64,000 nt of DNA from an uncultured Pelagibacteraceae bacterium (GTDB lineage: Bacteria; Pseudomonadota; Alphaproteobacteria; Pelagibacterales; AG-422-B15). The position numbers were made by a program, and so were the translations under genes. The notes below the pieces were generated by a model. The model saw nothing but the letters and a program-made list of their open reading frames with translations. It was not told where the DNA came from and searched no databases. The DNA lies in NCBI GenBank assembly GCA_902577765.1, contig CACHAK010000005.1, forward strand, positions 3,283-67,282, in the 5' to 3' direction. This document shows, piece after piece, positions 5,161 through 54,968 of the stretch. Within the stretch, counting starts at the first letter, position 1. Each line of letters starts with the position of its first letter.

Positions 5161-5181
5161 AATGTTAGATTATATAATTCT

Positions 5182-23939: not shown

Positions 23940-24056
23940 AAATAATACTAATATTAAAAACCTAGACAACTTAAGAACTTTACAGATAGGAGTCTACAAA
24001 AATGTATTGCTATAGAACACATTTTTACTTAAATTTTGTTTTAGGAGACTCAAATA

Positions 24057-24106: not shown

Positions 24107-24129
24107 GCGGTACACTCATTTACAGCATT

Positions 24130-24870
24130 ATGGGAAATGTAAATTTTTCATTGGAAGTTACTACAAGAACAAATCTGTCTGATTTGCCTAAACTCAATGA
24201 CATTTATATTACATTTTTGCCTGGCACAAGTTATCTTGACGTTATTGAACAAACCAAAGCGTTAGCTAGTGCAGGTTATAATCCCATTCCTCACTTTCCA
24301 GCTCGTTCAATTACTGATTCAGATATGTTAAAATCATATATAGAGCAAGTTAAAGAGGCTGGAGTTAAACAAGTTTTAATAATTGGTGGCGATCGCGATA
24401 TACTAGGAAAATATCATTGCTCGCTTCAACTTATTGAAACCGGATTATTTGATGGAATGAAAATAGGCATTGCTGGTCACCCTGAAGGATCTCCAAATAT
24501 GAGCGATACAGCTATTGAAGAAGCAATGAAATCAAAGGCCCCATTTGCCGATTATATAGTAACACAGTGGACACAAGATACAGACGCATTATCGTCTTTT
24601 ATTTCTGGAGCACCACTTCCTGTTCATGTAGGCGTTGCGGGTCCGGCTTCTATGAAGACGCTAGTTAAATTCGCTGGATTTGTTGGATTAAAGAATACGC
24701 TTAATTTCGCAAAAAAAAATGCATCTAAGATTTTTGATTTATTGACTGTTCAGACACCTGATGATGTAATTCAAGAATTAAAAGAGAACGTTGAACATTT
24801 TCACATTTATGCATTTGGTGGAATAAAAAAAGCAAACGAATGGTTAGAAAAGGAGAACTACTATGTCTAA
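24130..24870 (+). CDS. metF: Methylenetetrahydrofolate reductase-like protein (short marine type)
   Basis: FSLEVT, PHFPARSI, LIIGGD, IAGHPEG, IVTQW, VHVGVAGP. Confidence 0.8.
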   Translation: MGNVNFSLEVTTRTNLSDLPKLNDIYITFLPGTSYLDVIEQTKALASAGYNPIPHFPARSITDSDMLKSYIEQVKEAGVKQVLIIGGDRDILGKYHCSLQLIETGLFDGMKIGIAGHPEGSPNMSDTAIEEAMKSKAPFADYIVTQWTQDTDALSSFISGAPLPVHVGVAGPASMKTLVKFAGFVGLKNTLNFAKKNASKIFDLLTVQTPDDVIQELKENVEHFHIYAFGGIKKANEWLEKENYYV

Positions 24871-26206
24871 AAAAATAGAACATAACACTACTGTTGATCA
24901 AAGCGACAGACATGTTCCTTACAATTTACGCCAAAGTGGACCAACAAAAGTTGAAATGTTGATTTCAACTCGAGTAAGAAAGTCACCATATTGGCATAAG
25001 TCGATGGAGGCAGGATGCTGGAGAGCAACAGTTTATAACCGTATTTATCATCCCAGAGGTTATGTAAAGCCTGAAGATGGTGGAGCAATGGTTGAATATG
25101 AAGCAATTAAAAATCATGTGACTATGTGGAATGTCGCAGTTGAGAGACAAATACGTGTAATTGGTCCAGATGCAGAAAAATTTACAGACTATGTAATTAC
25201 AAGGGATGCCACAAAGATATCACCATTACGAGCTAGGTACGTAATATTATGTAACTATAAAGGCGGAGTCTTAAATGATCCTATTCTCTTAAGAATCTCG
25301 AAAGATGAGTTTTGGTTTAGTTTGTCAGACTCTGATATTGGACTTTATTTACAAGGTGTAAACGCTGATAAAAGATTTGATGTGGAAATTGATGAAATTG
25401 ATGCGTGCCCTGTTCAGATTCAAGGACCAAAAGCCATTGCCTTGATGAAAGACCTAGTGGGTGATCAAGTTGATCTTGATAATATTCCTTTCTATGGTCT
25501 AGCAGAAGTTACAGTTGGTGGAAGAAGTTGTGTGATTTCTCAAACTGGTTTCTCTGGCGAGTCCGGTTATGAAATTTATTTACGAAATGCGACGCTCTAT
25601 GCCGACGATATGTGGGACGCTGTTTTGGAAGCAGGAAAGAAACATAATCTAATGGTTATAGCGCCTGCTCACCACAGAAGAATACAAGCAGGCATATTAT
25701 CTTGGGGTCAGGACTTAGATCATGAACACAATCCTTTCCAATGTAATCTTGGCTATCAAGTTTCTTTATCTGGAAAAGGTGAGTGGGAGAAAAAAGGTGA
25801 TTATATCGGTAAGCAAGCGCTTGAAAAGATGAAGACTGACTTGAAAGATGGTCATAAGCCTTACAAGTTACAATTGGTGGGATTTGAAATTGGAGGCAAA
25901 CCAATTGATGAGTATGCGCCTGATTTTTGGCTTGTGTCTCCTGGTGAAGGTGGAGACCCATGTGGCTTTATTACTTCACCTTGGTATCATCCTGAAAAAG
26001 GGAAAAATATAGCTATGGGTTATATACCTTTTGATGGAACTCTTAATGCAAATGGCTTTCCAAAATGGGAACTAGGTAAAAAATTTAAAGTTCATTTACC
26101 TGATATTTATGCTGATGAGCCAGGAGTACCAGTAGACGCTGTAACAGTTGATGTACCGTTTACTGAGTCTTTCAACGCGAATACAAGAGAAGTTGTAAAG
26201 GGCTAG
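24863..26206 (+). CDS. GcvT-family THF-dependent aminomethyltransferase/demethylase
   Basis: RVRKSPYW, WNVAVERQI, NDPILLR, SQTGFSGESGYEI, RRIQAG; coupled to metF. Confidence 0.9.
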   Translation: MSKKIEHNTTVDQSDRHVPYNLRQSGPTKVEMLISTRVRKSPYWHKSMEAGCWRATVYNRIYHPRGYVKPEDGGAMVEYEAIKNHVTMWNVAVERQIRVIGPDAEKFTDYVITRDATKISPLRARYVILCNYKGGVLNDPILLRISKDEFWFSLSDSDIGLYLQGVNADKRFDVEIDEIDACPVQIQGPKAIALMKDLVGDQVDLDNIPFYGLAEVTVGGRSCVISQTGFSGESGYEIYLRNATLYADDMWDAVLEAGKKHNLMVIAPAHHRRIQAGILSWGQDLDHEHNPFQCNLGYQVSLSGKGEWEKKGDYIGKQALEKMKTDLKDGHKPYKLQLVGFEIGGKPIDEYAPDFWLVSPGEGGDPCGFITSPWYHPEKGKNIAMGYIPFDGTLNANGFPKWELGKKFKVHLPDIYADEPGVPVDAVTVDVPFTESFNANTREVVKG

Positions 26207-40017: not shown

Positions 40018-40944
40018 CTATAATTGATTGAGTACTTTAATGTGTTCAACTGTAGTGCCGCAACATCCACCTATAATTTGCGCTCCAGCATCCTTCCACT
40101 TTTTTGCTTCAATTAAATAATCATCAGGAGAAATTACATTGCTCATGTCGTAGTGTGGAAAATTAAATACTGCTACTTCTGGATACGCCATAACAGGAAG
40201 GTCATATACTTCTTTAAGTTCTTTAATACTTTGTTCTATTACATTAATTTCACAATGCATTATTCCTACAGCATCCAATTTATGATGTTTCACATTACTA
40301 ATCATTTTTTTAAAACTATAGTCATAGTCTGTAGTAAGGGCTATTAACCCGTCTTTATTTCTAGATGAGAATCCGGCCCACACAGGCAATCCCGCCTTGC
40401 TTGCTGAGTCAAAAATTATTTCAATTCGATCTGGTCGATACATTAACTCTAGTAGAATAAAATCACACCCATTATCGGCTAGAAAAAAAGCGAGCTCATC
40501 AAAAGACTTTTGAAAATATTCGGGTGTGAGTTTTTTTTTAAATTTCTCTCTTTCCTCTTGTGTTTCAAAAGCATCCTCATACGGTATTTGATGAGACAAG
40601 GACCCAGCTACAAGTACATCATCTCTACCACATTCTTCCCTTGCTTCTAGAGCTGCATTTATTGCACTTAGATTTATTTCTTTGAATTGATTATCTACCC
40701 CCGCAGTTTCTAAGATCATTCGATTTGTTGCATAAGTATTTGTAGTTATAATACTTGAACCAGCCTCAATATAATCTTTATGTATTTGCTTTAATGTATC
40801 GCTCTCTAAGGAAGCTGTGCCACACCAAGAATTATCCATTTTAATACCACGGTTTTCAAGCTCCGAACCAGTGGCCCCATCAAGAAGAATATTTTCTCCG
40901 GCATGAATACGTTTCATTAAATTTTCATATCTTTTGCTCATCAT
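40018..40944 (-). CDS. Homocysteine S-methyltransferase (MmuM/BHMT family)
   Basis: LLDGATGSEL, HKDYIEAG, TTNTY, Zn ligands MHC and GGCCG. Confidence 0.9.
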   Translation of the reverse strand: MMSKRYENLMKRIHAGENILLDGATGSELENRGIKMDNSWCGTASLESDTLKQIHKDYIEAGSSIITTNTYATNRMILETAGVDNQFKEINLSAINAALEAREECGRDDVLVAGSLSHQIPYEDAFETQEEREKFKKKLTPEYFQKSFDELAFFLADNGCDFILLELMYRPDRIEIIFDSASKAGLPVWAGFSSRNKDGLIALTTDYDYSFKKMISNVKHHKLDAVGIMHCEINVIEQSIKELKEVYDLPVMAYPEVAVFNFPHYDMSNVISPDDYLIEAKKWKDAGAQIIGGCCGTTVEHIKVLNQL

Positions 40945-41049: not shown

Positions 41050-42186
41050 ATGTCAAAAGGTATTATATACACCCCAAGGATTAGAAAATCACCTTTCTTT
41101 GAAGAGACACTAAAATACGGCGCTACCAATTTTACAACTTATAACCGTATGACGATGCCTGTTGGCTATACGACTCCTGAGGAGGAGTACCAATCATTAA
41201 TAAACGATGTAACATTATGGGATGTGGCAGCAGAGAGACAAATTGAAATTATTGGAGAGGACGCCGCTAAATTTGTTCAGTATATGACGCCAAGAAATCT
41301 ATCAACTTTTAAAGATGGGTTTTGTCGTTACGCATTTATGACAGATGAAAATGGTGGAATCATAAATGATCCATTAATTTTAAAGTTTAATGAAAATAAG
41401 TATTGGCTGAGTATTGCAGATTCTGATGCGATACTATGGTGTAAAGGCGTTGCTTTATCTGGTAAGTTTAATGTTAAAATTTCGGAGCCTGAAGCTTGTC
41501 CGCTTTCATTGCAAGGCCCGCGCGCAAAAGAACTCATGAGAAAAGCTACAAATGATGATCCAGTTATTATGGGATTAAAATATTATCAATTTATCGAAAC
41601 TAACTTATTTGGATTAGATATCGTCATTGCACGCAGCGGTTGGAGTAATCAGTTTGGATACGAAATTTATATAACAAGAGAAGTAGATGGTCCGGCATTA
41701 TGGAATGCATTAATGGAAGCAGGAAAAGAGTTTAAAATTGTACCAAGTTGTCCTAATCAAATAGATAGAATTGAAGCCGGTATGATTTCCCACCAAGGAG
41801 ATACCTCATTAGCTGAGAACCCTTTAGAACTAAACTTACCAAAATTTTATGATCTTGATCAAGAAGCGGACTTTGTAGGAAAAGATGCTCTCTTAAAAAT
41901 AAGAGAAGAGGGCATTAAAAAACAATTCACTGGTTTTAAAATTTCAGGAAAGAAAATTGGTTATAATATGGCAAGAATACCATTGTTTGACAATAACTCT
42001 GAAAAAAAAGGATTTGTAACCAGCTGTATTTATAGCCCAAACTTTGGATGCAATATTGCCTTAGGGTTCATTGATATTGATTTAATTAATTCAGAAGAAG
42101 TTTATCAGATTGATCATGATGGAGAGAAACGAGAAGTTGAAGTTGTCCCTTTACCATTTAGTTCTAGACTCGAAAAAATGGAATAA
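41050..42186 (+). CDS. DmdA-like GcvT-family THF-dependent demethylase
   Basis: RIRKSPFF, TYNRM, LWDVAAERQIEI, NDP, SIADSD, RSGWS...GYEI, RIEAG; RBS AAGGAGA. Confidence 0.85.
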   Translation: MSKGIIYTPRIRKSPFFEETLKYGATNFTTYNRMTMPVGYTTPEEEYQSLINDVTLWDVAAERQIEIIGEDAAKFVQYMTPRNLSTFKDGFCRYAFMTDENGGIINDPLILKFNENKYWLSIADSDAILWCKGVALSGKFNVKISEPEACPLSLQGPRAKELMRKATNDDPVIMGLKYYQFIETNLFGLDIVIARSGWSNQFGYEIYITREVDGPALWNALMEAGKEFKIVPSCPNQIDRIEAGMISHQGDTSLAENPLELNLPKFYDLDQEADFVGKDALLKIREEGIKKQFTGFKISGKKIGYNMARIPLFDNNSEKKGFVTSCIYSPNFGCNIALGFIDIDLINSEEVYQIDHDGEKREVEVVPLPFSSRLEKME

Positions 42187-42836
42187 TGATTTCAAGAAGT
42201 AGAGTTAATCAACTTTTATTCCTCTCAATAATTATATTAGCAGTCGTCACTGGTTGGGCAGTTTCTGAATTATTTAGAGACAATACTTCAGAAGTATCAA
42301 ATGATATTGATTTAAAATTCACAGCAGTTGACCATTTTGGAGTTGATGTAAGCGAAAGAACTTACAGCGGATATAGTAAAGTATTCTTTTTTGGCTTTAC
42401 TCATTGCCCAGATATTTGTCCAATTAGTGCAAATCTTATGAGTAATGCCATTGATCAATTAAATAGAGAAAACCATTCAATAGAAAATATAAAATTTTTC
42501 TTTGTAACAGTTGATCCTGCTAGGGATAACCCTGACCGATTAAAAGAATTTCTTAGCAACTTTAGCAATAATTTAATTGGTTTAACGGGGACACATGAAA
42601 ATCTTATGCCAATATGGAAAGATTTTTTTGTACATGTAGAGCCGGCAACAAATTCAGAACATCAAAATTATCTAGGTACATCTGAACAATCTGATGAAAT
42701 AACTAATAAAGAAAAAAATTACATGGTTCAACATACTGCTTTCTATTATATTTTTGATGATAATGATGTATTAAGAAGCATACTTCCCTTTGGTTCTAGT
42801 ATTGAACAAATGGTTGAAGATTTAAAAAATCTATAA
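42186..42836 (+). CDS. SCO/SenC copper chaperone
   Basis: N-terminal TM helix, FGFTHCPDIC (CxxxC), TVDPARD, distal His (VQHT). Confidence 0.95.
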   Translation: MISRSRVNQLLFLSIIILAVVTGWAVSELFRDNTSEVSNDIDLKFTAVDHFGVDVSERTYSGYSKVFFFGFTHCPDICPISANLMSNAIDQLNRENHSIENIKFFFVTVDPARDNPDRLKEFLSNFSNNLIGLTGTHENLMPIWKDFFVHVEPATNSEHQNYLGTSEQSDEITNKEKNYMVQHTAFYYIFDDNDVLRSILPFGSSIEQMVEDLKNL

Positions 42837-42838
42837 CA

Positions 42839-43084
42839 ATGTATAAAATATCAATATTTATTTTTTTTATTTTATTGTCTTGTTCCGAAATAATAGAAAC
42901 AAATAAATATAGAGAATTGGCATCTGAACAAGCATCAAAAAAAAATTGTGATGCTAATGTTGAGCTTCTTTTAAAACATGAAAAGACTGAATTATGGGCA
43001 TCTTATCATAACAAAGATAAAAACTTATTATGCGTTTTAACTTGTGTTAACGATGTCTGTATGTTTTCGACAGAGAGAGATTAA
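42839..43084 (+). CDS. Small Cys-rich lipoprotein, function unknown
   Basis: Lipobox LLSC at Cys15; four more Cys (KNC, CVLTCVNDVC). Confidence 0.7.
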   Translation: MYKISIFIFFILLSCSEIIETNKYRELASEQASKKNCDANVELLLKHEKTELWASYHNKDKNLLCVLTCVNDVCMFSTERD

Positions 43085-43087
43085 GGG

Positions 43088-43543
43088 TTGTATAAAGCAC
43101 TAATAATAGTTTTGTTTTTAGTTTCTACAAAAATTGGAGCTGCTCACCAATTTCAAAAAGATCATATTAATATAAATCACCCACACATTAAGTTTGTAAT
43201 TTCATCAGGCCCTGCAGCTGGATATATGAAAATAGTAAACATGGGTTTCGAGACAGATCGTTTAATTAAAGTTGTTACTGACTTTGCAGATACTGAGTTA
43301 CATTATTCAAGTGAAGAAAATGGAATAGTTACAATGAGTAAAGTTGATTTTATTGAAATCCCTCCACAAAAAGCTAAATCGCTCAAACCCGGCACGCACC
43401 ATATAATGTTTTCAAATTTTAGTATTGAATTAACTCATGGAATAAGTTTAGAAGGGTTTTTAGTATTTGAAAATGCAGGCGAGATCAAAGTGCTTTTTGA
43501 GGTTGAAACTCAAAAAAGTTTAGATGATCATACAGAACATTAA
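43088..43543 (+). CDS. PCu(A)C periplasmic copper chaperone
   Basis: Signal peptide; AAGYMKI, ELH...TM, LKPGTHHIM (H-M-HxM ligand pattern). TTG start. Confidence 0.9.
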   Translation: MYKALIIVLFLVSTKIGAAHQFQKDHININHPHIKFVISSGPAAGYMKIVNMGFETDRLIKVVTDFADTELHYSSEENGIVTMSKVDFIEIPPQKAKSLKPGTHHIMFSNFSIELTHGISLEGFLVFENAGEIKVLFEVETQKSLDDHTEH

Positions 43544-44424
43544 TGAAAACATTTAAAATTGAATATATCACCACACTTTTTTTTCTCACCTTGCTAATTG
43601 CTTTAGCTTGGTATTATTTATTCCTCATGGCATCTAATCCAATGGACTCAATGATGCAAAATAAAAATCCAATGACAATGTCAATGGAAACCGCGTCAGA
43701 AAATGAAATGTCAATGAACTCGATGTCTAATACAGAAATGACTATGGACTCAATGAATATGAATGAAAAAAACTCATCAATCAATTTTCTTATGATGCCA
43801 ATGACAGGAAAGTGGACAATAAATGATTTTATCGTGATGTTCGTAATGTGGACCGTCATGATGTTTGCGATGATGCTTCCATCTACATTTATCTTTTTAA
43901 ATATTTTTAGAATGATGAGATCGAATATGCAAATATCGTCGAATATTATTATTGAGATGATAGTGATTTCATTCACTTATATTTTAATTTGGACAATTTT
44001 TTCACTTATTGCATGTACTCTTCAATATATTTTTCACAATAACGGAGTAGTCGATATGATGGGAACATTACAAAACAATATTCTTGCAGGATTATTTCTT
44101 GTTGGAGCAGGTGCATTTCAATTTACAAGTTTGAAAGATACATGTCTTGAGAAATGCAGAAACCCCTTATCGTTTCTGATGGCTGGTCCTATTAAAGGAT
44201 ACGGAAATGTTGCCTATGTGGGTCTAAAGCATGGTTTATTTTGCCTAGGGTGTTGCTGGGTTCTTATGCTTCTGCTTTTTGTAAATGGAGTTATGAATTT
44301 ACTTTGGGTTGTCGCAATAACAATAATTGTATTGGCTGAAAAAATGCTGCCTTACGAGAAACTTAGCTCTAGATTTCTGGGCATTCTTCTTGTAGGTTGG
44401 GGGGCGTATTTAATACTTATTTAA
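43543..44424 (+). CDS. DUF2182 predicted metal-binding integral membrane protein
   Basis: MWTVMMFAMMLPS, QFTSLKDTCLEKCRNP, GLFCLGCCWVLM, GVMNLLW; Met-rich loop. Confidence 0.9.
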   Translation: MKTFKIEYITTLFFLTLLIALAWYYLFLMASNPMDSMMQNKNPMTMSMETASENEMSMNSMSNTEMTMDSMNMNEKNSSINFLMMPMTGKWTINDFIVMFVMWTVMMFAMMLPSTFIFLNIFRMMRSNMQISSNIIIEMIVISFTYILIWTIFSLIACTLQYIFHNNGVVDMMGTLQNNILAGLFLVGAGAFQFTSLKDTCLEKCRNPLSFLMAGPIKGYGNVAYVGLKHGLFCLGCCWVLMLLLFVNGVMNLLWVVAITIIVLAEKMLPYEKLSSRFLGILLVGWGAYLILI

Positions 44425-44428
44425 CTAT

Positions 44429-45109
44429 ATGACTGTAAATCCACTAAACTTACATTGGGAAATAAAAGGAAATTTTTTGCTGAATTGTAACTGCGATGTA
44501 TTTTGCAATTGTCCGATGTCCCTGGGGAGAGCGGTTCCAAATTCACCAAATGGTAAATGCTTTTCATGGTGGGGAATTAATATCGAAGAAGGATACGCAG
44601 AAGAAAAGTGGTCTGGATTTAACCCTATCAAAAGAGAGTCTAAAGGAATTATGGATTTAAGTGGTTTAAATGTTGCTATTCTTTTAGAAGTTCCTGGCCC
44701 TTTAGGTTCAGGCGGTTGGACAGCAGGATTATATATTGATGAAAAAGCATCTGATGATGCAGCTGATGCGCTCGCAGTTATTTTCTCAGGTCAAGCAGGT
44801 GGACAAACAGGTTGGTTTAGACATATGATTGCAAACTTCCTTGGCGTAAAAAGATGTTCTATATCATATAAAGAAACCGACGATGGATGGTCGTTTACAA
44901 TTCCAGAAATCTTAGATGGTCGAATTGAACATGAGCCAGGAAAAGAGAGAGGCGAAGTAGTAAAAGTATCAAACTTAAAATATTGGGTTGCGCCAGAAAT
45001 AATTGTTTGTAAAGGATCAAAAAGAAGTAGGATTAGAGATCACGGCCGTAATTGGGATTTCACAGGTGGAAGTGCCGAATATTGTGCTGTTGATTGGGCC
45101 GGACCATAA
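44429..45109 (+). CDS. DUF1326 Cys-rich protein
   Basis: W.IKG...NCNCDVFCNCP...C, YIDEKAS, IFSGQAGG, RDHGRNWDF. Confidence 0.9.
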   Translation: MTVNPLNLHWEIKGNFLLNCNCDVFCNCPMSLGRAVPNSPNGKCFSWWGINIEEGYAEEKWSGFNPIKRESKGIMDLSGLNVAILLEVPGPLGSGGWTAGLYIDEKASDDAADALAVIFSGQAGGQTGWFRHMIANFLGVKRCSISYKETDDGWSFTIPEILDGRIEHEPGKERGEVVKVSNLKYWVAPEIIVCKGSKRSRIRDHGRNWDFTGGSAEYCAVDWAGP

Positions 45110-45114
45110 TTCAT

Positions 45115-47550
45115 ATGAAAAACAAAGCTAAAGTTGTCGTCATTGGTGGCGGTGTAGTTGGAGTTAGTTCGCTTTACCACCTTGCAAAAAAAGGATGGTC
45201 TGATGTTGTTTTGTGCGAACGCAAAGAACTTACATCAGGTTCGACGTGGCACGCTGCGGGTTTGATGCCTTTATTCAACATGAGTTACTCTGTTGGTCAA
45301 ATCCATAAATACTCAGTTAAATTTTATCAAGAACTTGAAAAAGAAACTGGTCAAGATGTTGGCTTTAGGCAAGTAAGTAATATTCGACTTGCTGAAAACC
45401 AGGATAGAATGGATGAGTATCGTCAATATGCAGGTGTTGCGGAAACAATAGGTGTTAAAGTCAATTTTTTAACTCCCGAAGAAGTTCAAAAAGTTTGGCC
45501 GCTTTGTTCAACTGAGGGCTTAGTGGGTGCTATACAGCACCCTGAGGATGGATACATACAACCCAATGATCTTACGCAAGCTCTAGCAAAAGGAGCAAGA
45601 GCGCTTGGAGCTGAAATTTACAGACAAACAGCAGTCATAGGACTTGAACAGTTACCAGATGATAGTTGGATTGTTACAACTGATAAAGGTGAAATCAAAT
45701 GTGATATTGTTGTTTCATGCTCGGGAAATTTTGTCAGGCAAACCGGAGAAATGGTTGGATTAGATATCCCAGTGATACCTGTTGAGCATCAATATATCGT
45801 TACAGAAGCTCATCCTAAAATTCTAGAAAGACAAAAAGAAGGCCTTCCTGAAATGGGTGTACTTAGAGGATCTGACGGCGCATGGTATATGCGTGAGGAA
45901 GCTGGTGGATTAATTCTTGGACCATATGAAAATGGTGCACCATGTTGCTATGTCAATGGACCTAGCAAAGACTGTGAGTATGAATTATTCCAAGAAGACT
46001 TAGACAGACTTGGCCCCCATATAGAGCATGCCATTCACAGAGTTCCTATTTTTGGAGAAGCAGGAATTAAGAAAGTTTATAATGGTGCTATTTGTTATAC
46101 TCCAGATGGAAGCCCAATTATCGGTCCAGCATGGGATAGAAAAAATTTATATTTAAATGACGGTCATTCGTTTGGCGTTACAGCTGCTGGTGGTGCAGGC
46201 TGGCAGATCGCAGAATGGATTGTTGATGGCGAACCGACTATTGATATGCTCGGGGTTGAACCCAGAAGGTTTGGCGATTACGCATCAAAATCATATTTAA
46301 TCAAAAAAAATGAAGAGGCTTATGCAAACGTTTTCACAATCCATTATCCTGATGAAGAAAGGCCCGCAGGCCGACCATTAAGACAAGCTCCTTGTTATGA
46401 TAGGTTGAAAAATTTAGGTGCAGTGTTTGGTCAAAAGTTTGGTTGGGAGCGCGCAAACTGGTTTGCTCCTGAAGGAGTTCCTCAAGAAGACGATTGGTCA
46501 TTCAGGCGATCAGCATGGTTTGAGCACATTGGAAATGAATGTAAAAATGTAACAGAAAATGTAGGTCTTTTAGATATGACCGCATTTGCAAAATGCAGAA
46601 TAAGCGGACCAGGAGCAGAAGAATTCCTAGATAATTTAGTTGCTAATAAATTACCAAAAAAGATAGGAAGGACAAATCTCTGTCATGCTTTGAATTCTAA
46701 AGGAGGAGTACACTCAGAATTTACAATAATGAGAGAGTCTCATGACAGTTTTTATTGTGTTTCTGCTGGAGCTTGGCAGCGGCTGGACCATGATTGGGTA
46801 AAAAAACATATGCCCGATGACAGAAGTGTAAAATTTGAAAATATTACAAATCAAATTGGAGTATTAGTTGTCGCTGGTCCGAAGTCGAGAGAACTTCTTC
46901 AAAGAGTATCTGAGGATGATTTCACAAATGAGGGTTTCCCTTGGCTATCTGGTAAAAAAGTAAAAATTGGTGCTGCAGAAACACTTGCAATAAGAGTAAA
47001 TTTCGTTGGCGAATTAGGATGGGAAATCCACTCACCAATTGAAGTACAAAATCATATATTCGATACATTAATGGATGCAGGAAAAGATCTGGGTTTAAAG
47101 CCTTTTGGCATAAGAGCAATGGACTCTTTGAGAATTGAGAAATCATACAAACTAATTGGTACAGAATTATCAATTGAATACGCAGGATATGAGTCAGGAA
47201 TAGACAGGTTCATTCACCCAAACAAAGGTCAATTCATAGGCAGAGATGCATTAGTTCAGTGGAGAGAAAAAGGTTTTGAAAATTCCTTCGTAACACTTGA
47301 AGTTCATGGCGTCAAAGATGCTGATGTGCTTGGCAATAATCCAATATATGCTGATGGCAAAGTTATTGGTCGCGCTACAGGTGGAAATTTTGGCTTTCGA
47401 GTTAATAAGTCTCTCGCTTTAGCTATGGTCAATCCAGCTCATTCAGAAGTAGGCACAAAGTTAAAGATCGATATTTTGGGAGATATGTTTGATGTAACGG
47501 TAATACCCGAAAGTCCATACGATCCTGATAATCAGAAACTTAGATCTTAG
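45115..47550 (+). CDS. Dimethylglycine dehydrogenase-like flavoprotein (DAO + GcvT domains)
   Basis: IGGGVVG, TSGSTWHAAG (covalent FAD His), YTPDG, GWERANW, FVGELGWEIH. Likely start 45115 (track 45094). Confidence 0.9.
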   Translation: MKNKAKVVVIGGGVVGVSSLYHLAKKGWSDVVLCERKELTSGSTWHAAGLMPLFNMSYSVGQIHKYSVKFYQELEKETGQDVGFRQVSNIRLAENQDRMDEYRQYAGVAETIGVKVNFLTPEEVQKVWPLCSTEGLVGAIQHPEDGYIQPNDLTQALAKGARALGAEIYRQTAVIGLEQLPDDSWIVTTDKGEIKCDIVVSCSGNFVRQTGEMVGLDIPVIPVEHQYIVTEAHPKILERQKEGLPEMGVLRGSDGAWYMREEAGGLILGPYENGAPCCYVNGPSKDCEYELFQEDLDRLGPHIEHAIHRVPIFGEAGIKKVYNGAICYTPDGSPIIGPAWDRKNLYLNDGHSFGVTAAGGAGWQIAEWIVDGEPTIDMLGVEPRRFGDYASKSYLIKKNEEAYANVFTIHYPDEERPAGRPLRQAPCYDRLKNLGAVFGQKFGWERANWFAPEGVPQEDDWSFRRSAWFEHIGNECKNVTENVGLLDMTAFAKCRISGPGAEEFLDNLVANKLPKKIGRTNLCHALNSKGGVHSEFTIMRESHDSFYCVSAGAWQRLDHDWVKKHMPDDRSVKFENITNQIGVLVVAGPKSRELLQRVSEDDFTNEGFPWLSGKKVKIGAAETLAIRVNFVGELGWEIHSPIEVQNHIFDTLMDAGKDLGLKPFGIRAMDSLRIEKSYKLIGTELSIEYAGYESGIDRFIHPNKGQFIGRDALVQWREKGFENSFVTLEVHGVKDADVLGNNPIYADGKVIGRATGGNFGFRVNKSLALAMVNPAHSEVGTKLKIDILGDMFDVTVIPESPYDPDNQKLRS

Positions 47551-47562: not shown

Positions 47563-48618
47563 GTGTCAGAAGCTTTAAAAGTTTACGAACAGCTCTGTAA
47601 AGATAAGCATATTGAACATAATATTAAGCAAAAAGATTTAGTTATTGAATTAGATAAATTTTTGTCAGGTTCGAGCAGAAATTTTATAAAAAAACTATTT
47701 CGATATAATTTAAATCAAAAGAAATGCTTTTATTTATACGGGGGAGTGGGCATTGGAAAAACACTCATTATGGATTTATTCTATGATGACGTAAATTTCA
47801 AAGAAAAACAAAGAGTCCATTTTCATGAGTTTATGATTGATATACATGATCAGTTACACCAACTCAGAAATGAAAAAAATTCTAGAGATTTTATAATTTC
47901 AAAACTTGTAAAAGGTATTAAATCGAAATCAAGTCTCATATTTTTTGATGAATTCCAGGTCACAAATATAGCTGACGCAATGATTCTAGGGCATTTATTT
48001 GAGGAGTTCTTTAAAAATAATATTTTAATTGTATTAACTTCTAATTCCAGCCCAGAAGACTTATACAAAGATGGGCTGCAAAGAGAACTTTTTATTCCAT
48101 TTATTAATTTAATTAAAAATAACTCCTTAATTCATCATCTATCAATAGACATTGACTATAGAACAAGATCTTTAAAAGAAGAAAAGAACTTTTTTTTATC
48201 AAATTCACCAGTTAGCAAGCTTAAAATAAATGATATTTTTTCTATCCATTCAAATAAAACTTCAGTAGAGAATAAAGTAATAAGTGTGAAGAAGAGAAAT
48301 TTTGTTGTTAAGAATTTGTCTAATAGAATAGCTCGTTTTCAATTCAATGAAATTTGTGGAGATGATAGAGGCACTGAAGACTACCTCGAGTTAATTAAAT
48401 TAATTGATAGATTAATCGTTGAAAATGTTCCAAATTTTGGAAATACAAATTCTAATCTTCAAGAAAGATTTATTAATTTAATTGATGTTCTCTATGATAA
48501 TAAAATTAAATTATATTTAAGCACAGAAAAAGAAATAAGCGATCTTGGCAGTGCATATCATTTGAAAGATAAATTTAACAGAACCATAAGCAGACTTCTA
48601 GAAATGAAATCACAATAA
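47563..48618 (+). CDS. zapE: AFG1/ZapE family ATPase
   Basis: YGGVGIGKT, FFDEFQV, LTSN, RFINLIDVLYD, RTISRLLEM. Confidence 0.9.
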   Translation: MSEALKVYEQLCKDKHIEHNIKQKDLVIELDKFLSGSSRNFIKKLFRYNLNQKKCFYLYGGVGIGKTLIMDLFYDDVNFKEKQRVHFHEFMIDIHDQLHQLRNEKNSRDFIISKLVKGIKSKSSLIFFDEFQVTNIADAMILGHLFEEFFKNNILIVLTSNSSPEDLYKDGLQRELFIPFINLIKNNSLIHHLSIDIDYRTRSLKEEKNFFLSNSPVSKLKINDIFSIHSNKTSVENKVISVKKRNFVVKNLSNRIARFQFNEICGDDRGTEDYLELIKLIDRLIVENVPNFGNTNSNLQERFINLIDVLYDNKIKLYLSTEKEISDLGSAYHLKDKFNRTISRLLEMKSQ

Positions 48619-48624: not shown

Positions 48625-49860
48625 ATGAAAATAGCAGTAATAGGAGCGGGAATAGTTGGTATTTCTTCAGCTAATTGGCTTAAGAAGTACGGTCAAGATG
48701 TGACTTTGTATGATATGAATGATCCTGGATCACAAGCAAGTTACGGCAATGCTGGAACTTATGCAAAATATGCAAATATACCAACAAATTCATCATCCTA
48801 TTTTTATTTATTTCCATATCTATTGCTAAACAAAAACAGCCCCTTATTCATTAGCCTAAAACGATTAAATGAAACATTTCCTTGGATTATTAAATACTTG
48901 AGCAATTGCAGAAATGAAAAAGTTAACCACACTGTTCAACATTTAACAACTTTACTGTCACATATGGATGATGGTTATGAAGATCTTTTCAACGAAGCAA
49001 ATGTAGAAAATTATATTTCAAGAGAGTCTATTATGTATGGATGGTCTACAAAATTATTTTTTAATGCTGCAAAACGAGATTTTTCTAAAAGAAAAGAAAC
49101 AGGAGTTAAAATAACAACTCTAAGTCGAGATGATATTTCTGATCTTGAACCTAATATTAATAATATCTTTTACAAAGGGGCCTTATTTGAAGGTAGTTAT
49201 TTTGCGAAAAGTCCGATCAAGGTTAGCGAAGCATTAATGAAACTGTTTATTAAAAAAGGAGGAAAATTCAAAAAAGAGAAAGTTATATCCATCAAAAAAA
49301 CTGAAACTAGTCAAATAAATATTAAAACAAACTCAGGAGAGACCCTGCACGATAGAGTCGTGATTACATCTGGAGTGTGGTCTAATGATCTGCTTAAGCA
49401 TATAGGCGACAAAGTGCCACTGGAAGCTGAGAGGGGCTACCATTTGGTCAATCCGGAATTGAAGAATATTGTAAAAAGACCAATATCTTGGCAAGAAAGA
49501 GGAACATATTTTACTCCTATGTCTGACGGTCTAAGAACGGGTGGAATTGTTGAATTTGGAGCGTTAAATGAAACAAAAAATGAAAAAGTCCTTAACTTTT
49601 TAAACCGAGCATTAAAGGAAGTTTTTCCCTCAGCAGACCTTCCTCAAAAAACATGGGTAGGGTTCAGGCCATCGGTGCCTGACTCTCTTCCAGTGATTGG
49701 ACAATCTCCAAAAAACCCTTATATTTATTATAATTTTGGTCATCAACATATTGGGTGGTCATTAGGTGGCATATCAGGAAAACTGGTTGCACAACAAATT
49801 TGCGCAAACAATACAGATTTAGATTTGTCACCGTATTCTGTAAAGAGGTTTAAGTTATGA
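48625..49860 (+). CDS. D-amino acid dehydrogenase-like FAD oxidoreductase
   Basis: IGAGIVG, QASYGNAG, ERGYH, WVGFRP, FGHQHIGWSLG. Confidence 0.85.
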   Translation: MKIAVIGAGIVGISSANWLKKYGQDVTLYDMNDPGSQASYGNAGTYAKYANIPTNSSSYFYLFPYLLLNKNSPLFISLKRLNETFPWIIKYLSNCRNEKVNHTVQHLTTLLSHMDDGYEDLFNEANVENYISRESIMYGWSTKLFFNAAKRDFSKRKETGVKITTLSRDDISDLEPNINNIFYKGALFEGSYFAKSPIKVSEALMKLFIKKGGKFKKEKVISIKKTETSQINIKTNSGETLHDRVVITSGVWSNDLLKHIGDKVPLEAERGYHLVNPELKNIVKRPISWQERGTYFTPMSDGLRTGGIVEFGALNETKNEKVLNFLNRALKEVFPSADLPQKTWVGFRPSVPDSLPVIGQSPKNPYIYYNFGHQHIGWSLGGISGKLVAQQICANNTDLDLSPYSVKRFKL

Positions 49861-51098
49861 AATACTCACTATACAATTTAGTTAAGAATTCATTTTCTTA
49901 TCATGAGAATTGGGAAAAAGCATGGAGCAGTCCTGATCTTAAACCTGAATATGATGTAGTAATAGTTGGAGGCGGCGGCCATGGATTAGGAACTGCCTAT
50001 TACCTAGCAAAAGAATTTGGTGTTAAAAATATTGCTGTTCTTGAGAAGGGATGGATTGGTGGGGGTAATACAGGACGTAACACAACCATAATAAGATCTA
50101 ATTACTTATGGGATGAAAGTGCAGCTCTTTATAATCATGCTGTTAATTTATGGGAAGGCCTTTCTAGTGAGCTTAATTTTAATGTAATGTTTTCACAAAG
50201 AGGTTTATTTCACTTAGCGCATTCGGTTCATGACATGCAAGAAATCACAAGGAGAGGTTATTCTAATTATTTAAATGGTATTGACGCTGAAATTCTAAAT
50301 CAGGATCAAGTCGCAAAAAAAATACCTCATATTAATGTTAATGGCAGGTATCCTGTTTTAGGGGCTTTACTTCAGAGGCGAGCGGGAACAGCTCGTCACG
50401 ATGCTGTAGCATGGGGGTATGCAAGAGCGGCAGAAAATCTTGGTGTCGATATAATTCAAAACTGTGAGGTTAAAGGAATAGATATTTCAAATGGCAAGGT
50501 TGTTGGATTACAAACAACAAAAGGTTCTGTTAAAGTTGATAAAGTTGGCCTCGTACCTGCTGGACACTCCTCAGTATTAGCTAATATGGCAGGTTTTTCT
50601 CTTCCAATAAACTCTGTACCCTTACAGGCTTTAGTTAGTGAACCTGTCAAACCAATCTTAGATTGTGTCATCATGTCAAACTCAGTTCATGTTTACGTAA
50701 GTCAATCCGATAAAGGTGAACTAGTTGTTGGAGCAGGCTCTGATGCCTACAATTCATATTCTCAGAGAGGATCCTTTGACATGATTGAACATATGATGGC
50801 TCCTTTAGTTGAATTATTCCCAATATTCTCAAGACTTAAAATGCTTCGCAGCTGGGGAGGCATTGTAGATGTAACCCCAGATAGAAGTCCAATAATAGGA
50901 AAGACCCCTGTAAAAGACTTGTTTATTAACTGCGGTTGGGGAACTGGAGGGTTTAAAGCAACTCCAGGGTCAGCTCATGTATTTGCTGAGACAGTTTTTA
51001 GAGGAGAGCCAAATGATATTGCAGCTCCTTTTTCATTAGAAAGACATTTCTCAGGAGCCTTAGTTGATGAAGCTGCAGCGGCAGCAGTTGCTCATTAA
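49857..51098 (+). CDS. soxB: Heterotetrameric sarcosine oxidase beta subunit
   Basis: GGGGHG, GRNTTIIRSNY, RHDAVAWGY, GWGTGGFK. Confidence 0.95.
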   Translation: MKYSLYNLVKNSFSYHENWEKAWSSPDLKPEYDVVIVGGGGHGLGTAYYLAKEFGVKNIAVLEKGWIGGGNTGRNTTIIRSNYLWDESAALYNHAVNLWEGLSSELNFNVMFSQRGLFHLAHSVHDMQEITRRGYSNYLNGIDAEILNQDQVAKKIPHINVNGRYPVLGALLQRRAGTARHDAVAWGYARAAENLGVDIIQNCEVKGIDISNGKVVGLQTTKGSVKVDKVGLVPAGHSSVLANMAGFSLPINSVPLQALVSEPVKPILDCVIMSNSVHVYVSQSDKGELVVGAGSDAYNSYSQRGSFDMIEHMMAPLVELFPIFSRLKMLRSWGGIVDVTPDRSPIIGKTPVKDLFINCGWGTGGFKATPGSAHVFAETVFRGEPNDIAAPFSLERHFSGALVDEAAAAAVAH

Positions 51099-51108
51099 TA
51101 ATTTTTTT

Positions 51109-51393
51109 ATGTTTATAATTAATTGTCCATATTGTGGGGAAAGAGATCAGACAGAATTTACATGTCACGGCGAAGCTCACATCGCAAGACCAGATAACCC
51201 ATCTGAAATAAGTGATGAAGAATGGGGCAGGTATCTTTTTTTTAGAGAAAATCCAAAAGGGACCCATTTTGAAAGATGGACTCACGATCATGGATGTAGA
51301 CGATGGTTTAATGTAATGAGAGACACTGTCACAGATGAAATAATAAAAACATATAAAATGGGCGAAGCGAAGCCAGTGATATCAAATGAGTAA
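51109..51393 (+). CDS. soxD: Sarcosine oxidase delta subunit
   Basis: CPYCG, NPKG, H..GC.RW. Likely start 51109 (track 51064). Confidence 0.95.
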   Translation: MFIINCPYCGERDQTEFTCHGEAHIARPDNPSEISDEEWGRYLFFRENPKGTHFERWTHDHGCRRWFNVMRDTVTDEIIKTYKMGEAKPVISNE

Positions 51394-54391
51394 TCAAAAT
51401 AGGACAATTTACGGCGGCAAAGTAAATAGGGAAAAGCCGATTAACTTTATTTTTAATGGAAAGCATTATGTTGGTTATCAGGGTGATACGCTAGCTTCTG
51501 CGTTATTGGCTAACGATGTTCATTTAATTGGTAGAAGTTTTAAGTATCATCGCGCAAGAGGAATATTAACTGCAGGTTCAGAGGAGCCAAATGCAATTGT
51601 TCAATTAGGACTTGGAGCACGAACAGAGCCAAATATTCGTGCGACAGAAGTAGAGCTTTATGAAGGACTAGAAGCTTCTAGCCAAAATTGTTGGCCATCA
51701 GTTAATTTTGACATAGGAGCAATGAACAACTTTCTATCAAGAATATTCCCTGCAGGTTTTTATTACAAAACATTTAAATGGCCTCCAAGCATGTGGTTAT
51801 TTTATGAGCATTTCATAAGAAAAGCTGCTGGTTTAGGTCAGTCACCTACAGCAAAAAACCCAGATAGATATGAACAGAAATTTTATTACACTGATATCAC
51901 TATTGTAGGTGGTGGCATCTCAGGTTTACTCGCAGCTTTGGGCGCAGGTCGTTCTGGCTGTAAAGTCTTACTTATAGATGAAAATCCAGAATTAGGAGGA
52001 TATCTACTAGATTATAATTTTAGTATCAATGAAAAAGACGGAAAAAAATGGCTGAAAAAAATCATAGATGAATTAAACAGCTTAGCTAATGTTGTAATTC
52101 TCAAAAGAACTACCGCAATGGGGTATTATGATTACAACTATTTAACGGCCTTAGAAAAAGTTACTAATCACCATGTAGAATTTTCAAGTACTTTACCGAG
52201 AGAGAGATATTGGCGCATACGTTCAAAAAAAGTTATTTTGGCACAAGGAGCTTTTGAAAGACCACTTGTTTTTGCCGACAATGATAGACCCGGTATCATG
52301 ATGGCGTCTGCAGGTCAAAAGTACCTCTCTAGGTACGGAGTATTACCGGGTAAGTCAGTTGTACTTTTTACTAACAATGACCATGCTTATTTAACGGCTT
52401 TTGAATTTGTGGAAAAGGGAGCTAAAGTTACAGTTGTAGATACAAGAGATCTTTTAAATGCAAAAATTAGTGAAAAATGTAAATCATTAAATATTACAGT
52501 TTTTAATTCTTATTCAGTTATTAAGACCTATGGTGATAAGAAAGTAAACAAAATTGAAATACAGCAAGTTGACAAAGATCAAAATCAACTAATAGGAGAA
52601 GTTGAAGATATTCAAACTGATTGTGTTTTAATGTCTGGCGGTTGGAACCCAGCAGTTCAACTGTTTAGTCAATCAAGAGGTAAATTAAAATACGATCTTA
52701 AGATAAATACTTTTGTTCCTGATAAAATCATCGAAAACCAAAAAATAATTGGTTCGAATAACGGTCAGTTTAATCTGCAAGAAAATCTTAATGAATCATT
52801 TGAAGCAGGAATAGCAGCAGCTAATGAACTTAATTTCAATAGTGTAGAAAAAGTTAATTGGACTGGAAAAGAAGAGATAGAATTCACACATTCAGATGTT
52901 GAGCCGTATATGCTAGGTAAGAAAAAAGTTACAAAAGGATCTAAGCATTTCATTGATTTTCAAAACGATGTAACTGCTGCAGATATTTTTCTAGCGCAAA
53001 GAGAGGGTTATATAAGTGTAGAACATACAAAAAGGTATACAACAACTGGAATGGGCACTGACCAAGGAAAAACTTCCAATGTTAATGCATTGGCTTTAAT
53101 GTCTCATATTCATAATAAACCTGTTGACGAAATAGGACACACAACCTTTAGACCGCCTTATGCTCCTCAGACAATCGGAGCAATAGCTGGAAGAAGTGTT
53201 GACAAACTTTTTGATCCTGAACGAAAAACATCAATGCATGAATGGCATGTTGAAAATAAAGCTGTATTTGAGGATGTTGGGCAATGGAAAAGACCATATT
53301 ATTTTCCACAAAACAAAGAGGATATTCACCAGGCAGTTAAAAGAGAATGTTTAGCAGTAAGGAACAGCCTGGGTATATTAGATGCATCAACTCTTGGAAA
53401 GATTGATTTACAAGGGTCTGATGCTGCCAAATTCCTCAATATGATTTACACAAACGCTTGGTCAAAACTTGAAATTGGCTCATGCAGATACGGATTAATG
53501 TGCAATGAGCATGGCATGATATTTGATGATGGGGTTACTAGTAGGTTGGGAGAAAATCATTACCACATGACAACAACAACAGGCGGTGCTGCAAGAGTAA
53601 TGTCCTGGTTGGAAGAATTTCTACAGACAGAATGGATTGATATGAAAGTGTTTTGCACCTCAGTTACTGAACAGTGGGCTGTGCTATCTGTATCGGGACC
53701 AAATTCAAGAGACTTTCTAAAAGATTTAACAAATATTGATTTATCAAAAGAAAATTTTCCATTCATGAAATTTAGAGAAGGGGAAGTTTGTGGAGTTAAA
53801 GCAAGGATATTTAGAATCAGCTTTACCGGAGAGTTAAGCTTTGAGGTTAATGTACCTGCACGTTATGGACGTTATGTTTGGGAAAAATTTATGGAACACG
53901 GAAAAAAATACAATATTACTCCATATGGTACAGAGGCAATGCATGTATTGCGAGCTGAGAAAGGGTTTATAATTGTTGGACAAGATACAGATGGAAGTGT
54001 CACGCCAAGTGATATGAATATGGATTGGATCGTTTCAAAGAAGAAAGAAGATTTTCTTGGAAAGAGATCCTTTACAAGACCTGATACCATTAGACATGAT
54101 AGAAAAAAATTTGTTGGACTTTTAGTTAATGACAAAAAAACAATCCTTCCAGAAGGATCACATATCGTTGAAAAGGCATTAAAACAGCCACCGATGAAAA
54201 TGTTAGGACATGTTACATCTAGTTATTACAGTCCTACTTTAGGTTATCCAATAGCTCTAGCGATGTTAAAAGATGGCTTTAGTAAAATGGGTGAACAGGT
54301 AGTTGTACCACTTATGAATGGTAAGATTATTGAAGCTACTGTGACAGATACAATATTTTACGACAAAGAAGGTAGGAGAAATAATGAGTAA
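51386..54391 (+). CDS. soxA: Sarcosine oxidase alpha subunit
   Basis: GDTLASALLAN, RSFKYHR, DFQNDV, KRYTTTGMGTDQGK, C-terminal GcvT domains. Confidence 0.95.
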   Translation: MSNQNRTIYGGKVNREKPINFIFNGKHYVGYQGDTLASALLANDVHLIGRSFKYHRARGILTAGSEEPNAIVQLGLGARTEPNIRATEVELYEGLEASSQNCWPSVNFDIGAMNNFLSRIFPAGFYYKTFKWPPSMWLFYEHFIRKAAGLGQSPTAKNPDRYEQKFYYTDITIVGGGISGLLAALGAGRSGCKVLLIDENPELGGYLLDYNFSINEKDGKKWLKKIIDELNSLANVVILKRTTAMGYYDYNYLTALEKVTNHHVEFSSTLPRERYWRIRSKKVILAQGAFERPLVFADNDRPGIMMASAGQKYLSRYGVLPGKSVVLFTNNDHAYLTAFEFVEKGAKVTVVDTRDLLNAKISEKCKSLNITVFNSYSVIKTYGDKKVNKIEIQQVDKDQNQLIGEVEDIQTDCVLMSGGWNPAVQLFSQSRGKLKYDLKINTFVPDKIIENQKIIGSNNGQFNLQENLNESFEAGIAAANELNFNSVEKVNWTGKEEIEFTHSDVEPYMLGKKKVTKGSKHFIDFQNDVTAADIFLAQREGYISVEHTKRYTTTGMGTDQGKTSNVNALALMSHIHNKPVDEIGHTTFRPPYAPQTIGAIAGRSVDKLFDPERKTSMHEWHVENKAVFEDVGQWKRPYYFPQNKEDIHQAVKRECLAVRNSLGILDASTLGKIDLQGSDAAKFLNMIYTNAWSKLEIGSCRYGLMCNEHGMIFDDGVTSRLGENHYHMTTTTGGAARVMSWLEEFLQTEWIDMKVFCTSVTEQWAVLSVSGPNSRDFLKDLTNIDLSKENFPFMKFREGEVCGVKARIFRISFTGELSFEVNVPARYGRYVWEKFMEHGKKYNITPYGTEAMHVLRAEKGFIIVGQDTDGSVTPSDMNMDWIVSKKKEDFLGKRSFTRPDTIRHDRKKFVGLLVNDKKTILPEGSHIVEKALKQPPMKMLGHVTSSYYSPTLGYPIALAMLKDGFSKMGEQVVVPLMNGKIIEATVTDTIFYDKEGRRNNE

Positions 54392-54968
54392 TCAACCGCA
54401 AATTTTTTCCCCTCTTACACAAAAAGAAAAAATCGCTTCGGATAATATTTCATTGGAGCCAATTGATTTTTTAGGAAAAATTAATTTGAGATTAAAGGAA
54501 GATGATGCACAAGCAAGAGATGCAGTAGAAAAATACCTTACATATAGTCTTCCAAAAAGTGCTGGTGAAGCTACTGGAAATAATGAGACTAGAGTTTTGT
54601 GGTTAGGACCAAATGAATATTTGTTATTAAGTGAAGATGAAAAAAAAGACAATGTTATCAATGGATTAAGAGAAATACTTTCAGATTTATTTTGCGCACT
54701 TACCGATGTATCTGATTATTATTTGACGATGAGGCTTAGTGGCCCAAAAAGTATTGAAGTCTTATCAAAAGCTTGCCCTCTTAATTTTGATCAATATCTC
54801 ACAAAAGGGAATTCTTGCGCTCAATCATATATAAGTAAGGCAACAGTCCTTATTGACAGATTATCAGATGACCTAGTTTTTGATATATCAGTTAGATGGA
54901 GTTTTGCTGATTATTTATGGGATTGGTTAGCGGATTCAAGCAATGAATTTATTTTAAGCGAAAAGTAA
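54384..54968 (+). CDS. soxG: Sarcosine oxidase gamma subunit
   Basis: LWLGPNEYL, TDVS, CAQS, RWSFADYLW.WL. Confidence 0.9.
   Translation: MSNQPQIFSPLTQKEKIASDNISLEPIDFLGKINLRLKEDDAQARDAVEKYLTYSLPKSAGEATGNNETRVLWLGPNEYLLLSEDEKKDNVINGLREILSDLFCALTDVSDYYLTMRLSGPKSIEVLSKACPLNFDQYLTKGNSCAQSYISKATVLIDRLSDDLVFDISVRWSFADYLWDWLADSSNEFILSEK

Follow-up and report, generated by a model that had tools for sequence, protein, structure and literature searches.

The 64,000-nucleotide stretch of DNA analysed here (the window; all coordinates are positions within it) derives from the single-cell genome of a SAR11 bacterium of the family Pelagibacteraceae. Between positions 41050 and 47550 it carries an operon in which homologues of DmdE (PF09948, formerly DUF2182) and DmdF (DUF1326, PF07040) are encoded together with copper chaperones. 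Three observations are new: SAR11 lineages carry dmdEF homologues, the pair lies in a single operon with copper chaperones, and the pair travels with a sister clade of the demethylase DmdA across phyla. The arrangement suggests that the pair works with copper. We interpret the locus as the SAR11 DmdE/DmdF pair joined to copper-handling envelope proteins, which together would form a trans-envelope Cu(I) relay to DmdF; this interpretation is held tentatively, at a little under an even chance of being correct.

The first-pass annotation of this DNA described seven tightly packed co-directional genes, and the open reading frame (ORF) list together with the Pfam and NCBIfam scans agrees in order and coordinates (Table 1). 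All seven ORFs lie on the plus strand, and their successive junctions are a 1-nt overlap, a 2-nt gap, a 3-nt gap, a second 1-nt overlap, a 4-nt gap and a 5-nt gap. The last of these takes the likely ATG at 45115, 5 nt past the DmdF stop codon, as the start of the DMGDH-like flavoprotein, for which the ORF list gives a TTG start at 45094. An AAGGAG ribosome-binding site is present upstream of the first gene, which encodes a GcvT-family tetrahydrofolate (THF)-dependent demethylase of 378 residues (GcvT378). Promoter and terminator scans gave results at or below shuffle expectation and therefore say nothing about the operon boundaries, and no RNA family was found between 38 and 56 kb of the window (Rfam). 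Over 13 kb the window matches a contig of assembly GCA_902619965.1 at 99.99% identity, and its identity to several single-cell genomes of Pelagibacteraceae is 96–98%.

The annotation had regarded the inserted genes as a coherent copper-handling set, and the metal ligands of the encoded proteins bear this out. The SCO protein has the SCO1/SenC family domain, an N-terminal hydrophobic segment, the CxxxC cysteines Cys74 and Cys78 and the distal His183; these three residues are invariant in the three forms of the locus (A, B and C) described below (alignment), and the sequence FTHCPDICP matches the FTHCPD(I/V)CP motif of human SCO1 (PDB sequence matches). The protein is predicted to be anchored in the membrane at its N-terminus with the domain facing the periplasm. 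The operon SCO forms a clade of its own: matches of at least 41% identity lie in this operon wherever their context was inspected, and generic SCO proteins do not exceed 36%. Related SCO clusters also carry an AhpC-TSA Pfam domain. PCuAC combines a match to the family model with a signal peptide and the Met/His ligands for Cu(I), with His20, His31, Tyr46-Met47, Met83 and His105-x-Met107 invariant in five orthologues; His20 is probably the mature N-terminus. Its best PDB matches are the PCuAC structures 6P1G and 6P1F. Between the two chaperone genes lies that of an 81-residue lipoprotein, in which the lipobox Cys15 is accompanied by the invariant Cys37, Cys65, Cys69 and Cys74 (alignment) and which belongs to no family known to Pfam or NCBIfam. 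A weak SCO match (P0233) was considered as a SAR11 housekeeping SCO and set aside, because it lies in a Dsb/thioredoxin/DUF411 cluster from outside SAR11, a context that is uninformative; the literature on SenC in SAR11 yielded nothing usable.

DmdE connects this set to the membrane. The window protein scores far above the gathering cutoff of PF09948, a family which Pfam now names 'PpoB2, copper chaperone', and is 33% identical to DmdE of Marinovum algicola. It is a polytopic membrane protein. Of the 65 residues that form the loop 31–95, 16 are Met, and this loop is predicted to be periplasmic from hydropathy and the positive-inside rule. Conserved Met and Cys motifs are found in the transmembrane segments: Met102, Met106, Met107, Met110 and Met111 of the second transmembrane helix (TM2) are invariant in 39 sequences, as are Cys201-x3-Cys205 (CLEKC), Cys234 and Cys237-Cys238 (CLGCC). 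The CxxxC motif is predicted to lie in a basic cytoplasmic loop, and Cys234, Cys237 and Cys238 at the cytoplasmic end of TM5. In an AlphaFold2 model (mean predicted local distance difference test score, pLDDT, of 72) the helices are where they were predicted. DmdE has no PDB sequence homologue, and a Foldseek search with the model returned nothing with an E value below 1.

DmdF, in contrast to the predicted periplasmic SCO, has no signal peptide and is predicted to be cytoplasmic. The window protein is 41% identical to Marinovum algicola DmdF, and its five N-terminal cysteines, which like the Met-rich loop and the CxxxC and CxxCC motifs of DmdE had been picked out in the first reading, form a Cys20-x-Cys22-x3-Cys26-x-Cys28 cluster with Cys44, invariant in 14 homologues. 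Cu(I) is typically bound by Met-rich ectodomains and by CxC clusters, and CxC motifs are characteristic of Cu(I)-thiolate clusters. The AlphaFold2 model of DmdF (pLDDT of 80) is a β-barrel for which the nearest structures are barrels of the acetoacetate decarboxylase/MppR type, at a weak TM-score of 0.44 (Foldseek). DmdF has no PDB sequence homologue, and the modelled fold matches no known peroxidase.

The distribution of the locus was surveyed by using a DUF1326 alignment to scan a single representative genome of each GTDB species. The first matches were 44 Pelagibacteraceae/Pelagibacterales genomes, and after them came marine Acidobacteriota, Myxococcota, Entotheonella and Chloroflexota, among other groups. 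A dmdF homologue is thus present in at least 44 species-level Pelagibacteraceae genomes, most of which also have dmdE; no named SAR11 isolate is among the 44 in this species-representative scan. Loci were then searched with the window proteins and metagenome contigs were added. In more than 40 genomes, three architectures were found between the GcvT378 and DMGDH genes. Form A, which is that of the window and the commonest in SAR11, has the order SCO-lipoprotein-PCuAC-DUF2182-DUF1326; form B is form A without PCuAC; and form C consists of SCO-DUF1326 only. SCO and DUF1326 were never apart in the SAR11 loci examined, the gap between them being only 58 nt in form C, and the 81-residue lipoprotein is confined to SAR11 loci with DUF2182. 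The recurrence of the arrangement in 44 Pelagibacteraceae genomes and in metagenome contigs shows that it is not a product of chance. Form C is most simply explained by secondary loss, since relatives outside SAR11 have the DUF2182-DUF1326 pair.

The genes of the locus evolve at different rates. Mean identity to the window protein, compared over more distant full-form loci, form B and form C, is 98, 83 and 75% for DUF1326, 94, 85 and 85% for DMGDH and 70, 42 and 45% for SCO. For DUF2182, which is absent from form C, the values are 72% (distant full-form loci) and 50% (form B), and for PCuAC, which is absent from forms B and C, the value is 63%. DmdF is therefore the most conserved protein of the inserted module. 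Because it evolves slowly, like catabolic enzymes, while the envelope components evolve fast, like accessory factors, DmdF looks like the enzyme-like end point of the copper-handling set. The first-pass annotation had proposed DUF2182 and DUF1326 jointly as the copper client; these rates favour that role for DUF1326, whereas DUF2182 is more likely to be a membrane chaperone than a part of the client.

The assignment of DmdE as a chaperone rather than a catalyst follows from the precedent of PpoB2, a membrane protein of Marinomonas mediterranea that moves copper specifically to the tyrosinase encoded in the same operon (PMC2855505). DmdE belongs to the same Pfam family as PpoB2 (COG5486/PF09948), the chaperone of the PpoB1/PpoB2 system, and would likewise be a membrane metal-binding protein with a soluble partner. 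It differs in that the partner is DUF1326 and not tyrosinase, in that extra envelope chaperones are present, and in that the transfer of copper by DmdE is our inference. For DmdE, the window ORFs checked (nearly all of those of at least 110 residues) yielded neither a co-operonic tyrosinase nor any other known cuproenzyme; the earlier statement that the window holds no cox, mtoX, nosZ or other known copper client likewise stands, as COX, NosZ, SBP56/MtoX, multicopper oxidase and tyrosinase domains were all absent from these ORFs.

The same pair has been studied in Roseobacter. Together with PpoB2, that work has overtaken the earlier description of DUF2182 and DUF1326 as families lacking a known function, and the locus is a version of DmdEF/PpoB2 particular to SAR11 lineages, with copper chaperones added, and not an undescribed system. 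The names DmdE and DmdF were given by Fu et al. (EMBO J 2026), who found that Roseobacter dmdEF lie in a DmdR-regulated operon with dmdA-acuI, that mutants lacking dmdE or dmdF fail to grow on dimethylsulfoniopropionate (DMSP) and that the dmdE mutant is partly rescued when dmdA is deleted as well (PMC12992908). With purified DmdF they reported catalase-like activity, and in the dmdF mutant elevated levels of reactive oxygen species (ROS) (PMC12992908). The assay employed 10 mg/ml protein in 1.76 M H2O2 without cofactor analysis (PMC12992908), a crude test that makes the evidence for peroxide removal by DmdF, its sole reported activity, weak. Copper is nowhere mentioned in that work, which also states that SAR11 has neither dmdE nor dmdF (PMC12992908). 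The statement is true of the named isolates, none of which appeared in our scan, and false for at least 44 uncultured Pelagibacteraceae genomes. As in Roseobacter, the two genes of the pair occur in this order and side by side in the SAR11 loci, share an operon with a demethylase of the DmdA family, and have genes for a DMGDH-like protein and a DmdB-like ligase in the vicinity. The SAR11 loci differ in having no homologues of DmdR or AcuI (Marinovum queries) and no dinB, in a partner demethylase from the DmdA sister clade, in the added SCO, lipoprotein and PCuAC genes, and in the Met-rich loop of SAR11 DmdE, which Roseobacter DmdE does not have.

The partner demethylase is close to DmdA but distinct from it. 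GcvT378 falls short of the 410-bit cutoff of the NCBIfam DmdA equivalog model, with a score of 352.6 bits where Roseobacter DmdA reaches 680, and it aligns with the crystal structure of P. ubique DmdA (PDB entry 3TFH) at 277 bits. A neighbour-joining tree places it, together with the GcvT proteins found beside DUF2182-DUF1326 in Acidobacteriota and other phyla, in a sister group to the clade of validated DmdA from P. ubique and Roseobacter. Its assignment as plain DmdA was dropped as unproven on these two grounds, the subthreshold score and the position outside the validated clade. We therefore describe GcvT378 as a member of a DmdA sister clade and a candidate demethylase rather than an established DMSP demethylase.

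Clustering of the neighbours in 36 non-SAR11 loci, all against all, extends the association beyond SAR11. The DmdA-sister GcvT clade lies beside DUF2182-DUF1326 in 11 of the 36, an AMP-forming acyl-CoA ligase is near the pair in eight, a cluster of membrane proteins of about 500 residues (solute-symporter-like by eye) is also present in eight, and a homocysteine S-methyltransferase is nearby in six. The recurrence of GcvT, ligase and homocysteine S-methyltransferase neighbours across phyla indicates that the link of DmdEF to DmdA-type demethylation chemistry is broad. In Marinovum algicola, a plasmid operon has the order dmdE-dmdF-dmdB-dmdA-acuI-SBP56 beside a regulator at the dmdR position, and the DMGDH-like gene next to dmdEF encodes a protein 39% identical to the window DMGDH; the Antarctobacter dmdEF locus is similar.

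How the parts might work together can be set out as follows. PCuAC, the anchored SCO and the Cys lipoprotein would bind periplasmic copper and exchange it with the Met-rich loop of DmdE. DmdE would pass Cu(I) down the Met ladder of TM2 to the CxxxC and CxxCC motifs at the cytoplasmic face, and Cu(I) would then reach, or leave, the CxCx3CxC...C cluster of cytoplasmic DmdF. The direction could be that of import, or of export to the periplasmic chaperones as in the SenC/PccA pathways. By analogy with PpoB2 and tyrosinase, DmdE would serve as the dedicated membrane chaperone of DmdF, and metallated DmdF would work beside the demethylases, where its most likely task would be to clear a toxic demethylation by-product. 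Copper as the metal of DmdE and DmdF, the direction of its transfer, the contacts between the proteins and the reaction of DmdF are what we infer here from the gene order, synteny, homology and intact ligands described above.

Two known systems resemble parts of this scheme. The SenC/PccA relay for the assembly of CuA and cbb3 oxidases in alphaproteobacteria uses the same two periplasmic families with intact copper ligands, here paired with a membrane protein that would join the cytoplasmic and periplasmic copper pools; in contrast to that relay, no oxidase or P1B-ATPase genes are nearby, the membrane partner is of the PpoB2 family and the end point is likely to be cytoplasmic. In the mtoX-SCO1/senC-mauG cluster, which specifies a copper-dependent methanethiol oxidase (Eyice et al., 2018; PMC5739008), SCO is similarly embedded among genes of methyl-sulfur catabolism, although neither SBP56 nor MauG is encoded in the window.

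Several findings weigh against the relay. The first-pass annotation had called for a neighbourhood survey to test links of the pair with GcvT-family genes and copper chaperones, the lack of which elsewhere would count against its own proposal, and the outcome is half against it: the former link holds across phyla, whereas SCO was found near DUF1326 in none of the 36 non-SAR11 genomes (within about 10 kb; hidden Markov model built from 113 SCO sequences). No PCuAC match was seen at the DUF1326 loci of the same genomes either, and the dmdEF loci of Roseobacter and those on other plasmids also have neither SCO nor PCuAC. The copper-chaperone link is accordingly specific to SAR11 and could be incidental. 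DUF1326-DUF2182 pairs stand alone, with neither C1 nor copper-chaperone genes around them, in several bacteria (Polaromonas, Streptomyces, Bacillus cereus, Ralstonia, Sinorhizobium, Leisingera and a gammaproteobacterium). Form C has no DmdE yet keeps the periplasmic SCO and the cytoplasmic DmdF, and a simple linear relay does not account for it. Soft-metal motifs such as a CC pair in a transmembrane helix combined with a cytoplasmic CxxxC are compatible with Zn, Hg or Cd as well. The resemblance of the DmdF model to an acetoacetate-decarboxylase-type barrel is weak, and no catalytic site can be assigned.

One alternative is that SCO, PCuAC and the lipoprotein are housekeeping chaperones for the CuA site of cytochrome c oxidase, brought here by chance packing, and that DmdEF are independent of copper. 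SAR11 operons do mix functions, as the ZapE/AFG1 gene between the DMGDH and DAO genes illustrates, no copper client was found in the window ORFs checked, and DmdEF occur elsewhere without SCO and PCuAC. Chance packing does not sit well, however, with the retention of SCO beside DUF1326 through three rounds of gene loss or rearrangement, with a lipoprotein that tracks the presence of DmdE, with an SCO clade found in this operon wherever its context was inspected or with the annotation of DmdE's own family as copper chaperones. Named SAR11 isolates respire with an aa3 oxidase and none of them is among the 44 DUF1326-bearing genomes, so the module is not a general SAR11 need for oxidase assembly. 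We regard this alternative as unlikely. Defence against thiols or peroxide without any delivery of copper appears quite improbable: DmdF would be a peroxidase and SCO a thiol:disulfide oxidoreductase or peroxiredoxin-like protein, guarding against H2O2 from SoxBDAG, from the DAO-family enzyme or from steps downstream of demethylation. The catalase-like activity and raised ROS reported by Fu et al. (PMC12992908) speak for it, as do the H2O2-producing flavoenzymes encoded in the operon, the thioredoxin fold of SCO and the AhpC-TSA domain in related SCO clusters. The assay behind the activity is nevertheless crude (PMC12992908), the DmdF model is unlike any known peroxidase, SCO and DmdF are predicted to lie on opposite sides of the membrane, and PCuAC, the Met-rich loop and the PpoB2 membership of DmdE are left unexplained.

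The proposal of the first-pass annotation itself was that DUF2182 and DUF1326 form a membrane-linked metal/thiol redox unit that oxidizes demethylation products such as methanethiol or feeds their electrons to respiration. Its conserved Cys/Met motifs and membrane location are real, the pair is linked to demethylases across phyla, and in the Marinovum dmd operon a homologue of the SBP56 methanethiol oxidase is present, so that methanethiol handling is co-organized with dmdEF there. Against this, neither protein has a haem, Fe–S, flavin, quinone or cytochrome signature or a Pfam redox domain, neither model matches a redox protein structurally (that of DmdF is a barrel of the acetoacetate decarboxylase kind and that of DmdE is unmatched), the PpoB2 precedent makes DUF2182 a chaperone and not a catalyst (PMC2855505), and the same pair stands alone in soil bacteria with no C1 context. 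A redox unit is thus very improbable, and the passage of electrons to respiration finds no footing. DmdEF as a route for the re-oxidation of 5-methyl-THF, or as an electron conduit, was rejected for the same want of redox cofactor support in the sequences.

A bolder version of the copper relay, which we consider rather unlikely, is that DmdE/DmdF constitute an unrecognized route for copper into a cytoplasmic protein. DmdF would then be a new Cu-thiolate enzyme that detoxifies a thiol or peroxide by-product and makes DmdA-type demethylation tolerable, and some open-ocean SAR11 would have added SCO, PCuAC and the lipoprotein to scavenge scarce copper. If this were so, the turnover of methyl-sulfur compounds and methylamines in the sea by these lineages would depend on copper. 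More generally, the SAR11 operon provides a testable lead that is absent from the work of Fu et al., namely copper as a cofactor and DmdE as the metallochaperone of DmdF, and it widens the association of the pair from DmdA to a sister clade of demethylases, to marine Acidobacteriota and to related phyla. No bacterial clade in the ocean is more abundant than SAR11; were copper dependence confirmed, the supply of trace metals would matter for the cycling of organosulfur compounds and methylamines by a part of this clade.

Table 1 Genes of the DmdE/DmdF operon and its flanks, in window positions
Feature	Position	Strand	Basis
Homocysteine S-methyltransferase (BHMT/MmuM-like)	40018..40944	-	PF02574 in orthologous locus; NCBIfam matches below cutoff
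GcvT-family THF-dependent demethylase (GcvT378), 378 residues	41050..42186	+	Pfam GCV_T and GCV_T_C
SCO1/SenC copper chaperone	42186..42836	+	Pfam PF02630, 119 bits
81-residue Cys lipoprotein	42839..43084	+	LLSC lipobox; no Pfam or NCBIfam match
PCuAC periplasmic copper chaperone	43088..43543	+	Pfam PF04314, 69.7 bits
DmdE homologue (PF09948, formerly DUF2182)	43543..44424	+	Pfam, 184.1 bits (cutoff 28.7)
DmdF homologue (DUF1326, PF07040)	44429..45109	+	Pfam, 125.7 bits
DMGDH-like flavoprotein	45115..47550	+	Pfam DAO, FAO_M, GCV_T and GCV_T_C
ZapE/AFG1-family ATPase	47563..48618	+	Pfam, 288 bits; NCBIfam ZapE, 331 bits
DadA-like FAD oxidoreductase (DAO family)	48625..49860	+	Pfam DAO, 177.7 bits
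soxB, soxD, soxA, soxG (heterotetrameric sarcosine oxidase)	49857..54968	+	ORFs; Pfam families in orthologous loci

The homocysteine S-methyltransferase gene is the divergent upstream neighbour of the operon, and soxBDAG form the downstream end of the co-directional run. The first reading had let the operon run on to soxBDAG, which is correct, but the ZapE/AFG1 and DadA-like DAO genes intervene between DMGDH and soxB. All SAR11 loci examined keep the ZapE/AFG1 gene between the DMGDH and DAO genes, which is a strange place for a gene whose product is annotated as acting in cell division; mitochondrial relatives of this ATPase act on cytochrome oxidase subunits.

A further block of genes is located at 20629–26206 of the window. 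On the minus strand it contains a DmdB-like acyl-CoA ligase (20629–22272), a close relative of DmdB in the Marinovum operon, and a formate–THF ligase; next to these, on the plus strand, are genes for a 246-residue MTHFR-like protein and a 447-residue GcvT-family protein that scores 236 bits on the DmdA model. The block recalls the logic of ligM-metF-ligH, in which a 5-methyl-THF-forming demethylase is accompanied by folate-recycling enzymes, and in forms B and C this ligase/formate–THF ligase/MTHFR/GcvT block is directly upstream of GcvT378. Elsewhere in the window, a DUF1254/DUF1214 gene pair (15718–16837) and a DUF1611 gene (14154–15149), all from families with no assigned function, adjoin genes for a 2Fe-2S ferredoxin and a pyridine-nucleotide disulfide oxidoreductase.

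The Marinovum operon also prompted the idea that DmdEF supply copper to a cytoplasmic SBP56 methanethiol oxidase. It was kept as a minor possibility only: no SBP56 was found in any SAR11 locus, and the SBP56 genes of other Rhodobacterales lack neighbouring dmdEF and have a conserved membrane partner of their own. Each of the Rhodobacterales SBP56 genes is followed by a hypothetical gene of 200–218 codons (loci L091, 12454–14599; L105, 7001–9064; and L106, 7001–9082). The Marinovum SBP56, the sole one of which the N-terminus was read, has no signal peptide, and its partner is a multi-transmembrane protein with no Pfam family.

Variants of the DmdE/DmdF pair were seen in other settings. In two unrelated proteobacteria, the stand-alone pair adjoins genes for PhoU_div/DUF47 and a PHO4-type phosphate transporter (locus L100, Sinorhizobium meliloti pSymB, 3341–6627; locus L104, 2454–8765). 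Two DUF1326 genes stand in tandem in a Chloroflexota genome, with no DUF2182 within 10 kb (locus L067, 4893–6262). Conversely, an orphan PpoB2-family gene with no DUF1326 is located near a nuo operon on a marine contig of 32% GC content (locus L102, 9001–9771), and orphan paralogues like it could be of use to those SAR11 genomes in which only SCO and DUF1326 are retained.

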